64,000 bases of DNA. Source: Candidatus Poribacteria bacterium (GTDB taxonomy: Bacteria; Poribacteria; WGA-4E; WGA-3G). A model generated the notes under the pieces. The model did no database searches. It had not been told where the DNA came from and saw only the letters and a program-made list of their open reading frames with translations. Numbering within the stretch: position 1 is the first letter of the stretch; each line of letters starts with the position of its first letter. The translations under genes and the position numbers were made by a program. Positions 855-49,215 of this stretch are shown piece by piece. The stretch lies in the NCBI GenBank assembly GCA_965198235.1, contig OZ240248.1:2944001-3008000 (forward strand), in the 5' to 3' direction.

Positions 855-3293
855 TCAATTGTCCTTTGTGCCACGTCGCAACCGGAACGGATCACTCTTG
901 ACGATCTCTGTAATCAGCACAGAGCTTCTATAACCTCTGGCTTCAAGTTGTGCAACGATCCTGTCAACGATCGATCGGTCATAATATTCCAATCCTCTAC
1001 CTAAAGCATAGATTAACATTTTCTCTGTCAAACAGCGTAGGAATTGCTGTTTTCTGTCCTTGACGACCTGTTTCAGGTCGGCTACGCCGTGCAATACTGT
1101 TCCGTCTGGCAATTCCGCGGTTGTATCAATATCCAATTCGCCATCTTTCCACCGAAAAGCCCCAATCGCGTTGTAGTTTTCGAGTGCGAATCCGATTGGG
1201 TCCATTTTCGCATGACAGTTGGCACATGCGGGGTCTGCTCGGTGTTGCTCAAGCCGTTCACGTAGTGTACTCCCGTGAACCGCCTCACCCTCTTCTTCCA
1301 ATTCCGGGACATCTGGTGGCGGTGGTGGTGGTGGTGTACCGAGTATCTGTTCCAGAACCCAACGCCCCCTTTTGACGGGAGAGGTGCGCGTTGGGTTAGA
1401 AGTCACCGTCAAGACGCTGGCATGGCTAAGAATCCCACCACGCGAGGTACTCTGCAGCTTGACCCGTTGAAACGATCTGCCTTTAATCGCTTCGCCGCCG
1501 GGAACGATGTTCTTTTGTCCTCTCCAGTTTCCCTGTGTATCCATAATGCCGTAGTGATTTGCCAAGGGAGAATTGAGGAAAGTGTAATCGGCATCAATGA
1601 GGTCAAGTACACTCCGGTCTTCACGAAAGATTGATTCAAGAAAGAGTTCCGTCTCCTTTAACATGGCAGCGCGCAGTGCACCAGTGAATGTCGGAAATTG
1701 TTCGAGGTCGGGGGCAGCCGTTGTTAGTCGTTGGATTTGAAGCCATTGGGTTCCGAAATTACGGCCCAATTCGGATGCTTTCGGATCTGCCAACATGCGT
1801 TTAACTTGCGACTCCAGATTGGCAGTGAGTTGCTTCTTCCCAGCGAGTTCAAGGAGTTCGTCATCTGGCATGCTGCTCCACAAGAAGTAGGAGAGCCGAG
1901 AAGCGAGTTGAAACTCATCAATCGGATACGATTCTGAACGCTGTGGACGGTCGTCCAACTCCAACCGAAATAGGAACTTCGGTGAACAAAGAATGACTTT
2001 AATCGCCTCTTGAATGCCCGCTTCCCACGGCGCGCCATCCGCTTGAACTGATGCTACAAACTGTGTGAGTTGTTCCACTTCGTTTTCGGTGGGTGGACGA
2101 CGATAGCCGCGCCGAAGCAAACGCGTTAGCACTTCACGGGTCTGTTCTGCTTGGGAGATATCAGGTATGCACGCCAGAATTTCAAAATGAGAATCGGGTC
2201 TGGTTTCTAATGGTCCCTCTGCCCAGAGCGTGCGAATCTGGAGTTTAGCATGCGGTTCACCTTCTATTGGCTTAAGCATCGCAATACCGACTTTTTCAAT
2301 GTTAGGAATACCGGTCATAAGGAATTCAATTGTCTGTCTTTTTTCGTCATCGCGGGCGGTAATCTCAAAAGCCTTCAAAACCTTGATATTATTGTCTACC
2401 GTAGGATCTATGCCAACTAAGCGTGCGAGTTTCTCCGGTGGGGTCGTCTCCTCCAATTTGTCACCCTGAATGAATAAAGCGACTTCCACGGGTGTTTCGC
2501 TGTCCGTTTCGGCGTAAAGTGTTGCGCGGTAGACGATTTCTGCATCGGGAGATATCTTGAAATATGTCGCTCCCGTTGTAAAGGGACCAGATTTCCATGT
2601 TTCTGTGGCGGTTGGATCGAGCAGGCGGTAACGTTCATCAGGGACATCATCGTGGCGCGGATCAAGACGATTACCATTTTGGTAACGTTTGGAGGGTGGT
2701 GGTGGTGCCAACAAGATAACACGCGTGGCGATTGCCTCCGCGGCTTCAAGGTAACGCTCCATTAGAAGCGGTGACATCGTGAGCACATCACCGATATTAT
2801 CAAATCCGTGTCCGACATCATCTGCAGGAAAATTTTCGGTCGGGTTGAAATCAACTCCGAGTAGGTCTCGGACGGTATTCTTGTATTCGACTTTATTGAG
2901 TCGGCGGACCGTTACTCGTCCAGGGTCTGGCTTAGCCATGCGATCCGCATGTTCAAAGATCGCTTCAATGTGCGCAACAAAAGATTCCGACACTTCCATC
3001 GGCGGTTGATCGCTGTCCGATGGTGGCATCTGACCTGTCGTTAGCATGTCCAGAACCCGTTCCCAGATGTCCCGGTTTCCAATTAACGAGTGATTGTCCG
3101 TGAATGAATCCAAGGAGAGTTCGGCGGCAGGCTGATCACCGGCGTGACAACTAAAACAGTACTGTTCCAAGAACAAAGCACCATTTTGCGAAAAGTCGGA
3201 AGTGTCCTTTTCACCCGGGTTGGCAGTAAGTGCAACGAGCAGTAGCACTAAAATCAGACAAAAACATTGTGAGACATAATTGAGCGAAATCAT
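855..3293 (-). CDS. Planctomycete-type cytochrome c / PSD-domain protein (DUF1587/1595/1592/1588/1585 architecture)
   Basis: Signal peptide; two CxxCH heme motifs (CFSCH, CANCH); RRLNKVEYKNTVRDL, LASRLSYFLWSSMPDDEL, RTSPVKRG and PPPPPPDVP motifs typical of the family. Confidence 0.9.
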   Translation of the reverse strand: MISLNYVSQCFCLILVLLLVALTANPGEKDTSDFSQNGALFLEQYCFSCHAGDQPAAELSLDSFTDNHSLIGNRDIWERVLDMLTTGQMPPSDSDQPPMEVSESFVAHIEAIFEHADRMAKPDPGRVTVRRLNKVEYKNTVRDLLGVDFNPTENFPADDVGHGFDNIGDVLTMSPLLMERYLEAAEAIATRVILLAPPPPSKRYQNGNRLDPRHDDVPDERYRLLDPTATETWKSGPFTTGATYFKISPDAEIVYRATLYAETDSETPVEVALFIQGDKLEETTPPEKLARLVGIDPTVDNNIKVLKAFEITARDDEKRQTIEFLMTGIPNIEKVGIAMLKPIEGEPHAKLQIRTLWAEGPLETRPDSHFEILACIPDISQAEQTREVLTRLLRRGYRRPPTENEVEQLTQFVASVQADGAPWEAGIQEAIKVILCSPKFLFRLELDDRPQRSESYPIDEFQLASRLSYFLWSSMPDDELLELAGKKQLTANLESQVKRMLADPKASELGRNFGTQWLQIQRLTTAAPDLEQFPTFTGALRAAMLKETELFLESIFREDRSVLDLIDADYTFLNSPLANHYGIMDTQGNWRGQKNIVPGGEAIKGRSFQRVKLQSTSRGGILSHASVLTVTSNPTRTSPVKRGRWVLEQILGTPPPPPPPDVPELEEEGEAVHGSTLRERLEQHRADPACANCHAKMDPIGFALENYNAIGAFRWKDGELDIDTTAELPDGTVLHGVADLKQVVKDRKQQFLRCLTEKMLIYALGRGLEYYDRSIVDRIVAQLEARGYRSSVLITEIVKSDPFRLRRGTKDN

Positions 3294-4589
3294 CAGCTTC
3301 TTCAGGCTTTCCTATATTTGAAATGTGAGTGGTAAGGCAATATTTTCTTGCTTTACAATGGGTTGTTTAGATATAGGTTTATATCTAAAGTTAAGGCGTT
3401 TCAGTATTTTGCAGTCCGATACTTTTGCGGAAAGTGTCAGACGTTTGCCGCCTTCCACGGGTTGTAAACTCACCCCGTCTTTTTGGTGACCACATATCAC
3501 AGCAAGACCATGCTTGATATGCTTTACCAGTGTACCTTTGGTATATCCGAGGCATCTCGTGCCGCCATATCGCGGTCTTTTGCCGCCCTTTCTGGGCAGC
3601 TCCCTGTGTAGATTGCGTCTTTGTATAGATATAGGCGATATACAAAATATATCTGCATTATCCACATAAGGATTGCCGCCTACCACATGATATGCCAAGC
3701 ACCAACTATCCACACAATGTGCCTCAAAGACTTCAGCAGTCTTATTAGAGGACTTCTTCAAGCCAAGCGAGTCGCGTATATCTTTCGTTTCATGTCCCTG
3801 AAGTGTGAGCAACTCCCACTTCTTTCGGATTTCGCTATAGAACCATTCCTTGCCCACTTCAAGGGGGCTGAATGACTGGTTCCACTTCTTTTGATGCTTC
3901 TTGGTTCTTGCCTTAATATCTTCCACACATACTTGTGTGATTGGATACAGATTGGACAGCCAATCTAATATGTGCAGTTTCCAGTTCCACCTTCCACGCG
4001 TGCCAGCAGGGATGCGTTGCTTGTTAGTGAGTCTATTCATACGGTTCTTTCTATTGGGACACTTGCGTGAACGCCTGGACCTACGCAACTCTCGCCTTTT
4101 CGCAATCTTCTTGCCCACTTTGTTATGGGCATCGGCTTGAACATTCAGGTAAGTATGTTTCTCAGACTTCACTGTGAAACCTTCCTTTTTACTGCCAGGA
4201 TCCACACCAACCGCAATGTCCTGAGTATCTCTATCTGAAGGTTCCTTGTTAAGCCTTATACAAAATATGCCATTGTTAAAATAAGGTGTTGCTGCGCCAC
4301 GCTGAATAAGTTTCCTGGCACGCGAGGCATGCATTGGCATCAATTGCTGACCATCCTTCGATTTTACAGGTACTAACATAAGTTTACATCTCCTTCTCAG
4401 GGTGTGTGCTTCCCCATCGAGATCGCGGAACCAGAGAGGATATAGACTTGAGGAGCATCCAATACCATCTTGTTGACTGCCACGCCAAGGTCCGCGATAT
4501 TTTACTCTATTCAGATTCTCACGTTGCAGGGTCCCCGCTTGGCTGCGGATATTCTAACAATCTCCAGTCTTTAGACTGGAGTATCTGAA
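3294..4589 (-). mobile_element. IS200/IS605-superfamily OMEGA element (omegaRNA + isrB), non-autonomous (no tnpA in window)
   Basis: Left-end hairpin CTCCAGTC-TAAA-GACTGGAG (4562-4581) preceded by TTCAGATA; isrB ORF; 3' boundary abuts ATGA at 3293; right end degenerate. Confidence 0.7.
3312..4379 (-). CDS. isrB: IsrB RNA-guided nickase (RRXRR/PLMP family, RuvC without HNH)
   Basis: 355 aa; N-terminal PLMP-like QLMP; RuvC-I VGVD60PG; Arg-rich bridge helix RRELRRSRRSR; RuvC-II VE153D; RuvC-III H221CVD224; no HNH or CxxC insertion. Confidence 0.9.
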   Translation of the reverse strand: MLVPVKSKDGQQLMPMHASRARKLIQRGAATPYFNNGIFCIRLNKEPSDRDTQDIAVGVDPGSKKEGFTVKSEKHTYLNVQADAHNKVGKKIAKRRELRRSRRSRKCPNRKNRMNRLTNKQRIPAGTRGRWNWKLHILDWLSNLYPITQVCVEDIKARTKKHQKKWNQSFSPLEVGKEWFYSEIRKKWELLTLQGHETKDIRDSLGLKKSSNKTAEVFEAHCVDSWCLAYHVVGGNPYVDNADIFCISPISIQRRNLHRELPRKGGKRPRYGGTRCLGYTKGTLVKHIKHGLAVICGHQKDGVSLQPVEGGKRLTLSAKVSDCKILKRLNFRYKPISKQPIVKQENIALPLTFQI

Positions 4590-4609
4590 TCGTATGCTTC
4601 CCGAACTAT
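4380..4609 (-). ncRNA. omegaRNA (scaffold ~4589->4380; putative 5' guide ~4609->4590)
   Basis: Non-coding region directly upstream of isrB; TTCAGAT pairs with ATCTGAA downstream; terminal hairpin; GGATGCTCCTCAAGTC...CCTCT...TCGATGGGGA segments resemble IscB/IsrB omegaRNA scaffolds; boundaries inferred. Confidence 0.75.
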
Positions 4610-4676
4610 GGAACTAAGGTTTTGCTTTCTTGTGAAAACGTTTCGTTTGGTTATAAGTTTACGCTAATATGCAACC

Positions 4677-4706
4677 ATTATATCTCAGTATGAAGCCTAA
4701 AGGCAA
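4677..4706 (-). promoter_or_regulatory. Putative sigma70 promoter driving guide-omegaRNA-isrB (originally the DUF1592 gene promoter?)
   Basis: TTGCCT-18 nt-TATAAT on the minus strand. Confidence 0.5.
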
Positions 4707-4881
4707 ATAAAAACCCACTAAATACGGGATTATTTAGTTTTCTGAACAGAATTTGCGCTTTATGGTCAATTCTGCTAAAATAGCGGCGTTAGAAACAGCA
4801 AGATTCCAAGCGACTGTCCACGTGTCCTTCTCACCCAACGCATCTAAATGTGTTGAAAACGCTATAGGAGTATCTCCAGCC

Positions 4882-5952
4882 ATGAATCGACACGAACAAG
4901 AAGCAATTGTGAACGCAGCAGCGTTGCAAACCGTCTGTAGCCAACTTTACCAAAAAGTAGGCGTTGCTCAATCAGATGCTGATACCGTCGCAGAAATGCA
5001 AGTCCTGATGGATTTACGCGGCGTTCATTCGCACGCGACACGCGCCGTCCCGCGTTATGTTCGCGGTATCATCAACGGTGATATAAATCCTAATCCACAA
5101 CTTCAAAGGCTTGAAGACAACGCCGCTTCTGTCTTGTTAGATGGCGACCGCGGATTGGGGCATCTCGTCGGTGTCCGTGCAATGAACATCGCCGTTGAAA
5201 AAGCGAAGTCGGCTTCGATTGGCGTGGCGATTGTTCGGAATAGCAATCACTTCGGGGCTGCTTCCAGCCATGCGATGCGAGCCACGGAACACGATATGAT
5301 CGGTTTCGCAACCACTAACGGACTCGGTGTGAATGTCGCTGTCTTCGGCGCAAGAAGCACTTCGATCGGGAATAATGCGCTCTCCTTTGCCGTCCCCGCC
5401 GGTGAAGAGCCGCCGATCGTATTGGATATGGCGTGTGGTGCTGCCGCCGCTGGGCGGATTGGTACCGCGAGGTTATATCAAGAAAAAATCCCGTTGGGAT
5501 GGGCACTGGACGCAGATGGCAATGAAACCGATGACCCCGGGAAGGTTGCCGCTATCTTACCTGCCGCGGGTCCCAAAGGCTCTGCCTTGGCAATCGTGAT
5601 GGATGTCTTATGCGGTCCGTTGAGTGGTGGGCTGATGGGGATCAACAAGCATTATCAGCCTGGAGATGCACCACGAGAAAAACGCGTATCAGCACACTTT
5701 TTCTTCGCAATCAACATCGCCAGTTTCACTTCCATTGTAGAATTCAAAGCTGAGATTGACCGACAGATTCGGATGACACGTCAAGCCACCCCGCGTAGCG
5801 GATTTACGCGCGTCACCCTACCTGGCGAGATTGAATGGGAATTGACGCAAGAACGCCTCGCAAACGGGATTCCCCTCCACAGGGAACCATTGCAGGAGAT
5901 TGAGCGACTCGCTGACGAATTAGATATTGAAATTCCGTGGGACCGAGTGTAA
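4882..5952 (+). CDS. Ldh_2 family oxidoreductase (malate/L-lactate/ureidoglycolate dehydrogenase-like)
   Basis: DLRGVHSH, LDGDRGLG, NSNHFGA, IVLDMA, GPKGSALA and LPGEIE motifs; AGGAG upstream of ATG 4882. Confidence 0.9.
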   Translation: MNRHEQEAIVNAAALQTVCSQLYQKVGVAQSDADTVAEMQVLMDLRGVHSHATRAVPRYVRGIINGDINPNPQLQRLEDNAASVLLDGDRGLGHLVGVRAMNIAVEKAKSASIGVAIVRNSNHFGAASSHAMRATEHDMIGFATTNGLGVNVAVFGARSTSIGNNALSFAVPAGEEPPIVLDMACGAAAAGRIGTARLYQEKIPLGWALDADGNETDDPGKVAAILPAAGPKGSALAIVMDVLCGPLSGGLMGINKHYQPGDAPREKRVSAHFFFAINIASFTSIVEFKAEIDRQIRMTRQATPRSGFTRVTLPGEIEWELTQERLANGIPLHREPLQEIERLADELDIEIPWDRV

Positions 5953-42514: not shown

Positions 42515-42568
42515 CAAAGTTTTTCGGTCTGAAAACCCCCGATTTTAATAGGTGGGGGAAAACCGTCC
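42515..42568 (-). mobile_element. Solo IS200/IS605 (IscB/IsrB-type) right-end remnant
   Basis: CGGTTTTCCCCCACCTATTAAAATCGGGGGTTTTCAGACCGAAAAACTTTG|ATGAAC; nested hairpin with the same layout as 49166-49215. Confidence 0.6.
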
Positions 42569-42649
42569 TTTTTTTCTTCATACAAAGTGTATAATAGTTT
42601 TATTACGTCAGCGAGCATACGAGTACGACAATTGTAAAACAGGCACGTT

Positions 42650-48995: not shown

Positions 48996-49057
48996 GGCAG
49001 TGATAGAGGTGACATCCGTTATCAGAAATTTATGCACTTCAATATTGGAACCCGTCT

Positions 49058-49215
49058 CAAGGTTGGAAAACCAAAGATATACGCGATAGATTAGGGCTAA
49101 AGAAGTCATCTAACAAACTTGCCGAGACTTTTGATGCTCATTGTGTTTAATTTCAATTATAGGAGCGGGCATTCCTTCCACACCTAAAGGATTGAGTTTC
49201 TTGCCCGAAGATTAG
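49058..49215 (+). pseudogene. isrB: Internally deleted isrB relic with IS right end
   Basis: 49058-49147 translates QGWKTKDIRDRLGLKKSSNKLAETFDAHCV, 24/30 identical to IsrB aa 194-223; then jumps to an FNFNYR tail (cf. IsrB LNFRYK) and hairpin CGGGCA...TGCCCG-AAGATTAG|ATGA. Confidence 0.9.

Follow-up and report, generated by a model that had tools for sequence, protein, structure and literature searches.

An IsrB element parts the Shine-Dalgarno sequence of a DUF1592 gene from its ATGA start in a Candidatus Poribacteria bacterium

How does a gene come to be separated from its own ribosome-binding site by 1.3 kb of DNA, and why should the intervening element stand exactly in front of the start codon? 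This question is raised by a locus in a stretch of 64,000 nucleotides (nt) from a Candidatus Poribacteria bacterium (assembly GCA_965198235.1, contig OZ240248.1, positions 2,944,001 to 3,008,000 of the forward strand), here called the window. All positions are window coordinates, and the features of the locus lie on the minus strand unless stated otherwise. The locus holds isrB, a structured RNA region upstream of it and, downstream, a host gene of 812 amino acids (aa) with the Pfam domain order PSCyt1-PSD3-PSD5-PSD4(DUF1592)-PSCyt3-PSD2 (855..3293). We think it likely that an IsrB OMEGA (short for obligate mobile element-guided activity) element was inserted at the ATGA start of this PSD/DUF1592 gene, that its guide would come from the host leader, that its nickase would act on the empty allele and that this copy would no longer move.

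The insertion can be read from related genomes. With a 4-kb query around the locus, congeners were found to have both flanks without the intervening 1.3 kb, and the element is absent from all nine orthologous congener junctions (L014-L020, L023 and L024), each of which has ATGA at the empty site. The first-pass annotation, made from the letters of the window alone, had removed 3294-4589 in silico, which restored a Shine-Dalgarno (SD) to ATG joint, GGAAGCATACGA|ATGATT, and had proposed that orthologous DUF1592 loci be aligned in search of the empty junction. In two congeners, G006 and G024, the junction reads ...TTTCAGGAAGCATACGA|ATGATTTCGCTT..., identical to the predicted joint (CATACGA|ATGATT). 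The seven other loci are empty at the same point with slightly diverged flanks, namely ...TAC(TC/TA)|ATGA(T/C)T in G018, G014, G012, G020 and G004 (CATACTC|ATGATT in G014 and G018) and ...CATATCA|ATGATT in G001 and G013. The empty allele of a related strain was also met in a metatranscriptome contig of 365 nt (run X7), where 3293 is joined to 4592 with GA between, as in G018. Against the putative guide, the G006-type joint is identical at the 12 positions nearest the TAM (target-adjacent motif), and the G018-type joint has mismatches beside it. Since the empty sites equal the predicted joint letter for letter, they establish the insertion model, and the joint in G006 and G024 does not allow the boundaries of the element to be shifted by even one base. 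The whole element is thus 1296 bp in size (3294..4589) and runs from TTCAG... at its right end (RE) to ...GAAGCTG at its left end (LE), with no target duplication. It was inserted 5' of ATGA and parts the host gene's SD from its ATG; in the uninterrupted arrangement an SD-like GGAAG is followed by 7 nt and then ATG. Two other candidates were rejected. Another element might have been hidden in the gaps of 1.4-2.5 kb between the flanking genes of some congeners; in G010, the one inspected, the gap holds unrelated genes for a membrane protein and a TPR protein. A closer isrB copy might have occupied the same site elsewhere; the copies L053, L054, L055 and L058 (80-87% identical over the best segment) lie in other contexts.

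With the insertion established, it follows that the 20 nt directly 5' of the structured RNA (ATAGTTCGGGAAGCATACGA, 4590..4609) are host leader and hold the host SD, GGGAAG, as they also appear as host sequence at the empty sites of the relatives, and that ATGA stands directly 3' of the element (3290..3293), where it is formed by the host start codon and one further base. It comes 18 nt after the TAG stop codon of isrB and opens the host gene, as had been noted at first sight and as the open reading frames (ORFs) and Pfam agree. The leader between a promoter-like site and the scaffold is ~70-80 nt long and ends with the 20 nt given above, at 4590. A 5' leader and a 3' ATGA give the same geometry of guide and target-adjacent motif (TAM) as described for IscB and IsrB. 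The IsrB of Desulfovirgula thermocuniculi (DtIsrB) works with an RNA of 284 nt, whose 5' guide is 20 nt long, and its TAM is NTGA (Hirano et al., 2022; PMC9581776). For the Geobacillus stearothermophilus IscB (GstIscB) the TAM is given on the LE side as TTCAT, the equivalent of ATGAA (Meers et al., bioRxiv 10.1101/2023.03.14.532601). On this architecture the end of the host leader would be the omegaRNA guide and ATGA the TAM.

The protein encoded by the element is 355 aa long (isrB with its stop codon, 3312..4379). Its only Pfam match is RRXRR (PF14239, E-value 3.7e-32) and the Pfam scan gave no HNH match, in line with the initial description of an IsrB that lacks HNH. The best match among solved structures is the D. 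thermocuniculi IsrB 8dmb (E-value 6.7e-37, residues 3-314), and IscB structures match only the N-terminal 110-140 residues (3-114/143) at ~1e-7. Residues D60, E153, H221 and D224, which had been picked out as those of RuvC, fall on the DPG, ED and H..D motifs when aligned with 8dmb and are invariant in 28/28 full-length family copies. The N-terminal QLMPM (residues 11-15) aligns to PLMP of 8dmb, with M14 invariant, and the Arg-rich bridge RRELRRSRRSRK aligns as well. The RRXRR-only Pfam result, the match to 8dmb and the conserved tetrad together point to an HNH-less IsrB that looks catalytically intact.

Relatives of this protein allow selection in the family to be followed. The own genome has 12 protein matches to IsrB, of which 6 are close to full length and 64-73% identical. 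In species-representative genomes a scan found another 28 loci, every one of them titled Candidatus or uncultured Poribacteria. Between the focal isrB and 10 other copies, the proportion of nonsynonymous differences (pN) is 0.14-0.26 and that of synonymous differences (pS) is 0.65-0.87; eight of the ten pairs are saturated at synonymous sites, and in the two computable pairs the ratio of the corresponding rates (dN/dS) is 0.13-0.15. Purifying selection across the family is clear from these alignments, as a family signal from which the focal lineage cannot be isolated. Judged in the same way, the IsrB family is old and constrained, and copies that share a genome do not stem from a recent burst. 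One of the own-genome copies (L004, C1:1584115-1585380) is a full IsrB element inside what appears, read by eye, to be the C-terminal part of a PIN/VapC-like gene, and the gene remnant downstream of it has an in-frame TGA where W is expected.

The 210 nt directly 5' of isrB (4380..4589) form the RE of the transposon, are bounded by the element end and run into the isrB SD; this position fits an IsrB omegaRNA by analogy. At its start the region reads TTCAGATA-CTCCAGTC-TAAA-GACTGGAG (4589 down to 4562). An alignment of 29 copies was made (alignment A1), and nhmmer profiles served for a census. In these 29 copies conservation starts at a single column, (T/G)TCA(G/A)..., and the sequences upstream are unrelated between copies. 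RNAalifold gave 45 pairs, 30 with compensatory changes. When the 5' stem TTCAGAT/ATCTGAA, described by the first-pass annotation within its structured non-coding region, is added, the resulting 53-pair structure has 89.1% of its cells paired, compared with 74.0% in column shuffles and 33-42% with slid partners; 37 pairs have changed on both sides and 0/500 shuffles reach the observed values. As the aligned sequences are related, the shuffle counts are not probabilities, and more weight lies on the slid controls and on the large number of independent pair types. The 5' stem itself (columns 1-7/81-87) covaries across the 29 copies, its first pair being GC in 21 and UA in 7 with none unpaired, and its fifth pair AU in 16 and GC in 11. 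Helices 2 and 3 of A1, which make up the subterminal hairpin of the RE (CTCCAGTC-TAAA-GACTGGAG, 4562..4581), covary too. IsrB and IscB omegaRNAs have adaptor and nexus pseudoknots; here one candidate pseudoknot, between a CUCCCC loop and UGGGG (columns 145-149/184-188), is 97.9% paired, with one covarying pair (AU in 19, UA in 6). No claim is made for helix 6 (columns 45-48/55-58), 45.5% paired in A1 and probably misaligned, and a pairing of a GCCAA loop with TTGGC was dropped by eye, one side being invariant while the other varies. Covariation across these copies shows a conserved structured RNA at 4380..4589.

The other end of the element tells a different part of its history. By the IS200/IS605 convention the omegaRNA side is the RE and the TAM adjoins the LE (Meers et al., bioRxiv 10.1101/2023.03.14.532601). 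The erosion that had been ascribed to the right end is real and belongs, by this convention, to the LE. In full copies an interrupted hairpin of ~45 nt stands between the isrB stop and the element end, and their LE is ordered as AGGAG, the long interrupted hairpin, GAAGATTTTG and then ATGA. The outer stem covaries (CGGTGT/ACACCG, CGGGCA/TGCCCG, CAGGCT/AGCCTG), and the loop of the inner stem, CTAAAG, resembles the RE hairpin type, so that in the family subterminal hairpins with CTAAAG loops stand at both ends; the focal copy retains the RE hairpin only. Comparison with L003, L008, L031 and the 14 seed ends shows that its LE, GAAAGCCTGAAGAAGCTG (3294..3311), keeps the last 18 nt and is without the 5' outer arm and the inner hairpin, ~34 nt less than in L031. 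The focal copy (L001) was not detected by the LE profile, an nhmmer profile built on the 14 seed ends that replaced a simple hairpin finder found to be too noisy. In transposition of the IS608 type the Y1 transposase needs the LE hairpin, and as this hairpin is lost here, the focal copy is probably not excisable and fixed in place.

The element can be classed as a non-autonomous one of the IS200/IS605 superfamily (ISC-type). Six Y1 transposase genes (PF01797) are found in the own genome, none adjoining an isrB. Two IS605-like tnpA-tnpB copies have an LE upstream of tnpA whose reverse complement matches the LE of an ATAA-flanked IsrB subgroup, which suggests that TnpB and IsrB elements may share transposase and LE. 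These two copies of tnpA with a tnpB-like gene (L026 and L027, own genome C1:4381488-4381841 and C1:4792784-4793137) are 98.8% identical. Three further Y1 genes (L028-L030, own genome C1:3853757, 606918 and 1898775) are flanked by repeated hairpins of the GCACTCC(A/G)GCGGAGTGC type; they look like an IS200 or a repetitive extragenic palindrome (REP)/REP-associated tyrosine transposase (RAYT)-like system, unrelated to the IsrB ends.

For its omegaRNA, an IscB element depends on transcription that comes from outside, and elements of this kind are biased in their orientation with respect to the upstream gene (Meers et al., bioRxiv 10.1101/2023.03.14.532601). For the present locus it had been proposed that the element borrows the host promoter and that the host gene is transcribed with it. 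A promoter-like site of the host gene, TTGCCT-18 nt-TATAAT, lies at 4677..4706 and matches the consensus at 10/12 positions. In run X5 (sponge metagenome, metatranscriptomic) 0.83 of the sampled words of the locus were found. Contigs with 0 differences cover 3102-3198, 3169-3473 and 4400-4656; the second of these bridges the junction of the LE stump and the host ATG, the third bridges the RE into the host leader, and a further contig, 3494-4419, has 2 differences. The X5 contig in the host leader stops at 4656, and the stretch 4696-4800, which lies upstream of the predicted -10 box, has a depth of zero. The contigs across both junctions and the lack of cover upstream of the promoter weakly support transcription that begins at the host promoter and crosses the element to reach the host gene. 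Runs X9 and X10 have a word share of 0.24, which is what the flanks alone would give; the X9 contigs consist of flanks and of conserved isrB pieces of other copies with no clean empty joint, and no conclusion was drawn from them. At another locus (L055:1200-1300) a perfect TTGACA-17 nt-TATAAT promoter stands ~25 nt upstream of the omegaRNA boundary, and a transcript from it would begin with a near-natural guide length, processing being unneeded.

A possible mechanism can be put together from these parts. The host promoter would transcribe leader, scaffold, isrB and host gene, and the last ~16-20 nt of the leader would become the guide of the omegaRNA. The complex of IsrB and omegaRNA would then recognise the uninterrupted allele, where the guide match is followed by the TAM ATGA, and nicking there would favour spread of the element, by copying, to alleles that are still empty. 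An allele that already holds the element would be no target, because the guide match there precedes scaffold DNA (TTCA) and not ATGA. Guide use, TAM, nicking, co-transcription as a single RNA and immobility are what we infer from the features described above.

Several results weigh against this reading. A cmscan of 2500-5500 with Rfam 15, at E-values up to 1, found neither HEARO (RF02033) nor any other omega family, and its single hit, Yfr10, is probably a chance match outside the element. The first-pass annotation had itself counted the lack of a covariance-model hit against its proposal; we attribute it to the library, and it is for want of an Rfam match that the alignment of 29 copies was made and its covariation stands in for the library model. 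The scaffold is 210 nt long, compared with ~262 nt in DtIsrB. Guide length, 5' processing of the ~80-nt leader and the TAM are predictions. The promoter-like site is the best of 4 sites in 3200-4900, and since shuffled sequences average 3.1 sites, the match alone is not significant. The RNA evidence consists of assembled contigs, which do not give strand, transcript ends or a single molecule, and in which carry-over of DNA is excluded only by the uncovered bins upstream. The nearest isrB paralogue in the own genome is only 73% identical, and among the own-genome Y1 transposases none was found with the LE of the ATGA subgroup. With the LE hairpin gone, the excision that lies behind the known role of the nickase cannot occur here, and isrB may simply not have decayed yet.

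The last of these points leads to the alternative that survives best, namely that the locus is a decaying relic: the element would have been inserted after the split from the sampled congeners, would then have lost its LE hairpin, and would have no present function, isrB being intact for lack of time. This history is possible, and we keep it as a tentative second explanation. It would account for the deleted LE hairpin and for an insertion seen in this genome only among the 9 orthologous loci, and the own genome is rich in fragments and in miniatures without isrB, with one copy (L003) that carries two in-frame stops in isrB. The full-length ORF, the four catalytic residues and the omegaRNA helices are all intact, however, the locus is present in RNA libraries, and the family is under strong purifying selection with saturated synonymous sites. 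These points do not isolate the focal lineage from its family.

Why does the element stand exactly at a start codon? The commonest 3' flank of the IsrB family is ATGA, and the focal insertion is one of many at such sites. Of 24 related loci in other genomes whose LE is recognisable, 14 have an ORF of at least 60 aa that begins with the ATG adjoining the element. In the own genome the profiles gave 16 omega-like and 29 LE-like matches, many of the latter being isrB-less miniatures or solo remnants; at 13 of the 29 LE-like ends such an ORF begins with the flanking ATG. Together with the focal copy, 28/54 ends in these sponge-symbiont genomes, or about half, are start-codon ends, a count in which L044 and L048 may be one orthologous event. 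Several further ends lie 2-17 nt ahead of a start codon (rpsR, dxs, hisB and a 2-hydroxyacid dehydrogenase gene). A Pfam scan of 16 start-codon ORFs gave domains in 11 and no match in 5. In 5/11 the profile begins at its position 1-3 within the first 9 residues (ThiI_fer, PUA_2 of ATP sulfurylase, DUF433, PhyH and M81), and a MatE match begins at residue 23; these are true N-termini. The ORFs of L031 and L048 are doubtful. SD-like purines are found 3-16 nt before the RE boundary in 12/17 start-codon copies, compared with 1/8 copies elsewhere.

Start codons are also occupied by elements without an intact isrB. In the own genome, an omega+LE miniature of 353 bp (C1:2377106-2377458; L012:1306-1658) parts SD and ATG of trpB, with GGAGATGAAT on one side and the gene's ATGAAA on the other; trpB is here a 410-aa ORF whose N-terminus was identified by eye as tryptophan synthase beta-like. 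The empty site of this miniature was found in G010, which reads GGAGATAAAT|ATGAAATCC there; it is the second that is exact to the nucleotide, and neither of the two shows a duplication. The 70 nt just upstream of the trpB miniature (query 430-506) belong to a dispersed repeat, for which congeners have many matches at 85-94%. Where the own genome, G000, carries the miniature, G006 (L062, C1:4684888-4685060) has a tandem repeat of about three units, with 171 extra nt, made up of the trpB leader and the gene's first ~50 nt. Two more remnants lie in the window. A solo LE remnant (42516-42570, minus strand), with the hairpin CCCCCACC..GGGGG followed by ...GAAAAACTTTG, adjoins the ATGA start of pheT (tRNA_bind, B3_4, B5), and an internally deleted isrB fragment (residues ~193-224) with a complete LE (49055-49215, plus strand) ends in ...GAAGATTAG|ATGAAC, where a DUF6178-family gene starts.

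The pattern was compared with a crude gene set, for which non-overlapping ORFs of 100 aa or more were taken from their first ATG (3871 genes). Start-codon ATGA sites number 1532, or 3.7% of 41,895 ATGA sites, and the observed 14/30 own-genome ends have a binomial P of 6e-13 on this basis. Among non-disruptive sites (5819 non-coding sites plus the start codons) the start codons are 20.8%, and 14/30 gives P 0.0014. In the 50 or 100 nt upstream of gene starts there are only 447 or 893 sense-strand ATGA sites, and if retention were limited to sense-oriented elements in transcribed leaders, 63-77% of the available sites in this crude model would be start codons. An ATGA target, the loss of disruptive insertions and the need for outside transcription could therefore yield the start-codon pattern with no special targeting, being numerically sufficient on rough gene calls.

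Based on the miniatures at trpB and pheT, the LE end would have to permit initiation of translation, and the initiation region may be the A/U-rich tail or the AGGAG that is conserved at the base of the LE hairpin. From here a wider proposal can be made, which we put forward as a doubtful one: the IsrB/omegaRNA family may be specialised on translation-initiation sites as a refuge, with the start codon and one further A as TAM, the ribosome-binding-site region as guide, host promoters alone for transcription and the LE as a replacement initiation region (AGGAG brought near the ATG by the hairpin, or the A/U-rich GAAGATTTTG tail), so that elements and miniatures would be built-in, possibly regulatory leaders of housekeeping genes, among them trpB, pheT, rpsR, thiI and sat.

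For the focal locus the same observations could be taken to mean that the element is a domesticated leader cassette, kept for the expression of the host gene (through a structured leader, translational coupling from isrB or the LE stump as initiation region), or that IsrB serves as an RNA-guided DNA binder. The native spacing of SD and ATG is replaced and the host gene is intact, 28/54 family ends and the isrB-less miniatures at trpB and pheT adjoin host start codons, and the isrB stop of full copies is placed within the loop of the LE hairpin, 25-35 nt ahead of the host ATG. We find this explanation improbable, as the catalytic residues are kept, unlike in the nuclease-dead domesticated TnpB relatives called TldR (named in the review PMC13565253), the insertion is conserved in no congener, and the guide match in the occupied allele is without a TAM. 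A true choice of target by the transposase, through a longer or structural target at initiation regions rather than retention after insertion at any ATGA, would explain why 14/30 ends exceed both expectations given above, and it too seems hardly probable, since the common flank is only ATGA-like, the upstream flanks are unrelated except for the SD-like purines, retention in the crude model could suffice alone, and copies also lie inside the PIN-like gene remnant (L004, by eye) and at places where no ORF of at least 60 aa starts within 45-60 nt.

The preferred reading, an IsrB OMEGA element at the host ATGA with its guide in the leader, can be placed beside known systems. DtIsrB, like the focal IsrB, is an HNH-less RuvC protein of ~350 aa with a PLMP-type N-terminal region and an Arg-rich bridge. 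A structured RNA with its guide on the 5' side lies directly upstream and ends at the ORF start in both, and an NTGA-type TAM fits the focal ATGA flank. They differ in scaffold size, as given above, and are covered by no common covariance model. The ISGst IscB elements of G. stearothermophilus, also non-autonomous and of the IS200/IS605 type, are moved in trans by a Y1 TnpA; an RE-bounded omegaRNA, a guide outside the element, a TAM by the LE, outside transcription and an orientation bias liken them to the focal element. They differ in that IscB with HNH makes a double-strand cut, whereas the focal protein looks like a nickase-type IsrB, and in that the portion of the report used here describes no start-codon placement for them, compared with 28/54 ends in this family. 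Palindrome-associated transposable element (PATE)-like IS200/IS605 miniatures and standalone omegaRNAs, the latter mentioned in PMC9581776, are matched in the own genome by omega+LE elements without isrB and by solo LE remnants, which differ in also sitting on start codons (trpB, pheT). TldR, a nuclease-dead, TnpB-derived RNA-guided repressor, resembles the focal protein as a transposon-derived RNA-guided protein fixed by host regulatory DNA; the focal locus differs in its intact catalytic tetrad, in an insertion unconserved among congeners and in an occupied-site guide match without TAM. In the portions consulted of Meers et al., Hirano et al., a 2026 review and the further literature searched, no description was found of start-codon placement with the ribosome-binding-site region as guide. 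The kind of element and the logic of guide, TAM and empty allele are already known, and the start-codon insertion niche is, within this literature, unreported.

IsrB has been known mainly through biochemistry and one structure, and we know of no demonstration of a natural role for the IsrB nickase in transposon maintenance. The main value of the locus is that it offers a ready-made natural test bed for IsrB biology, in which an inferred guide and TAM come together with empty and occupied alleles defined to the base, and to which co-occurring strains with empty alleles and the RNA evidence can be added. Start-codon placement means that a TAM can coincide with a universal genetic signal and that such elements may be obligate passengers of host transcription units. 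That an insertion between SD and ATG is tolerated in essential genes raises a testable question of how translation is re-established, as the crude retention counts leave unexplained how trpB, pheT and rpsR are translated once the SD has moved away. For annotation it matters that such elements or their remnants are present in the leaders of many Poribacteria genes.

Some minor features lie upstream of the locus, where the divergent gene encodes an Ldh_2 dehydrogenase according to Pfam. The weak Yfr10 match (4698-4776, minus strand) has 26 bits compared with a gathering score of 43 and is probably due to chance. In the same divergent intergenic region, a terminator-like hairpin with a T run is found at 4714-4728 (minus strand), just upstream of the predicted host promoter.

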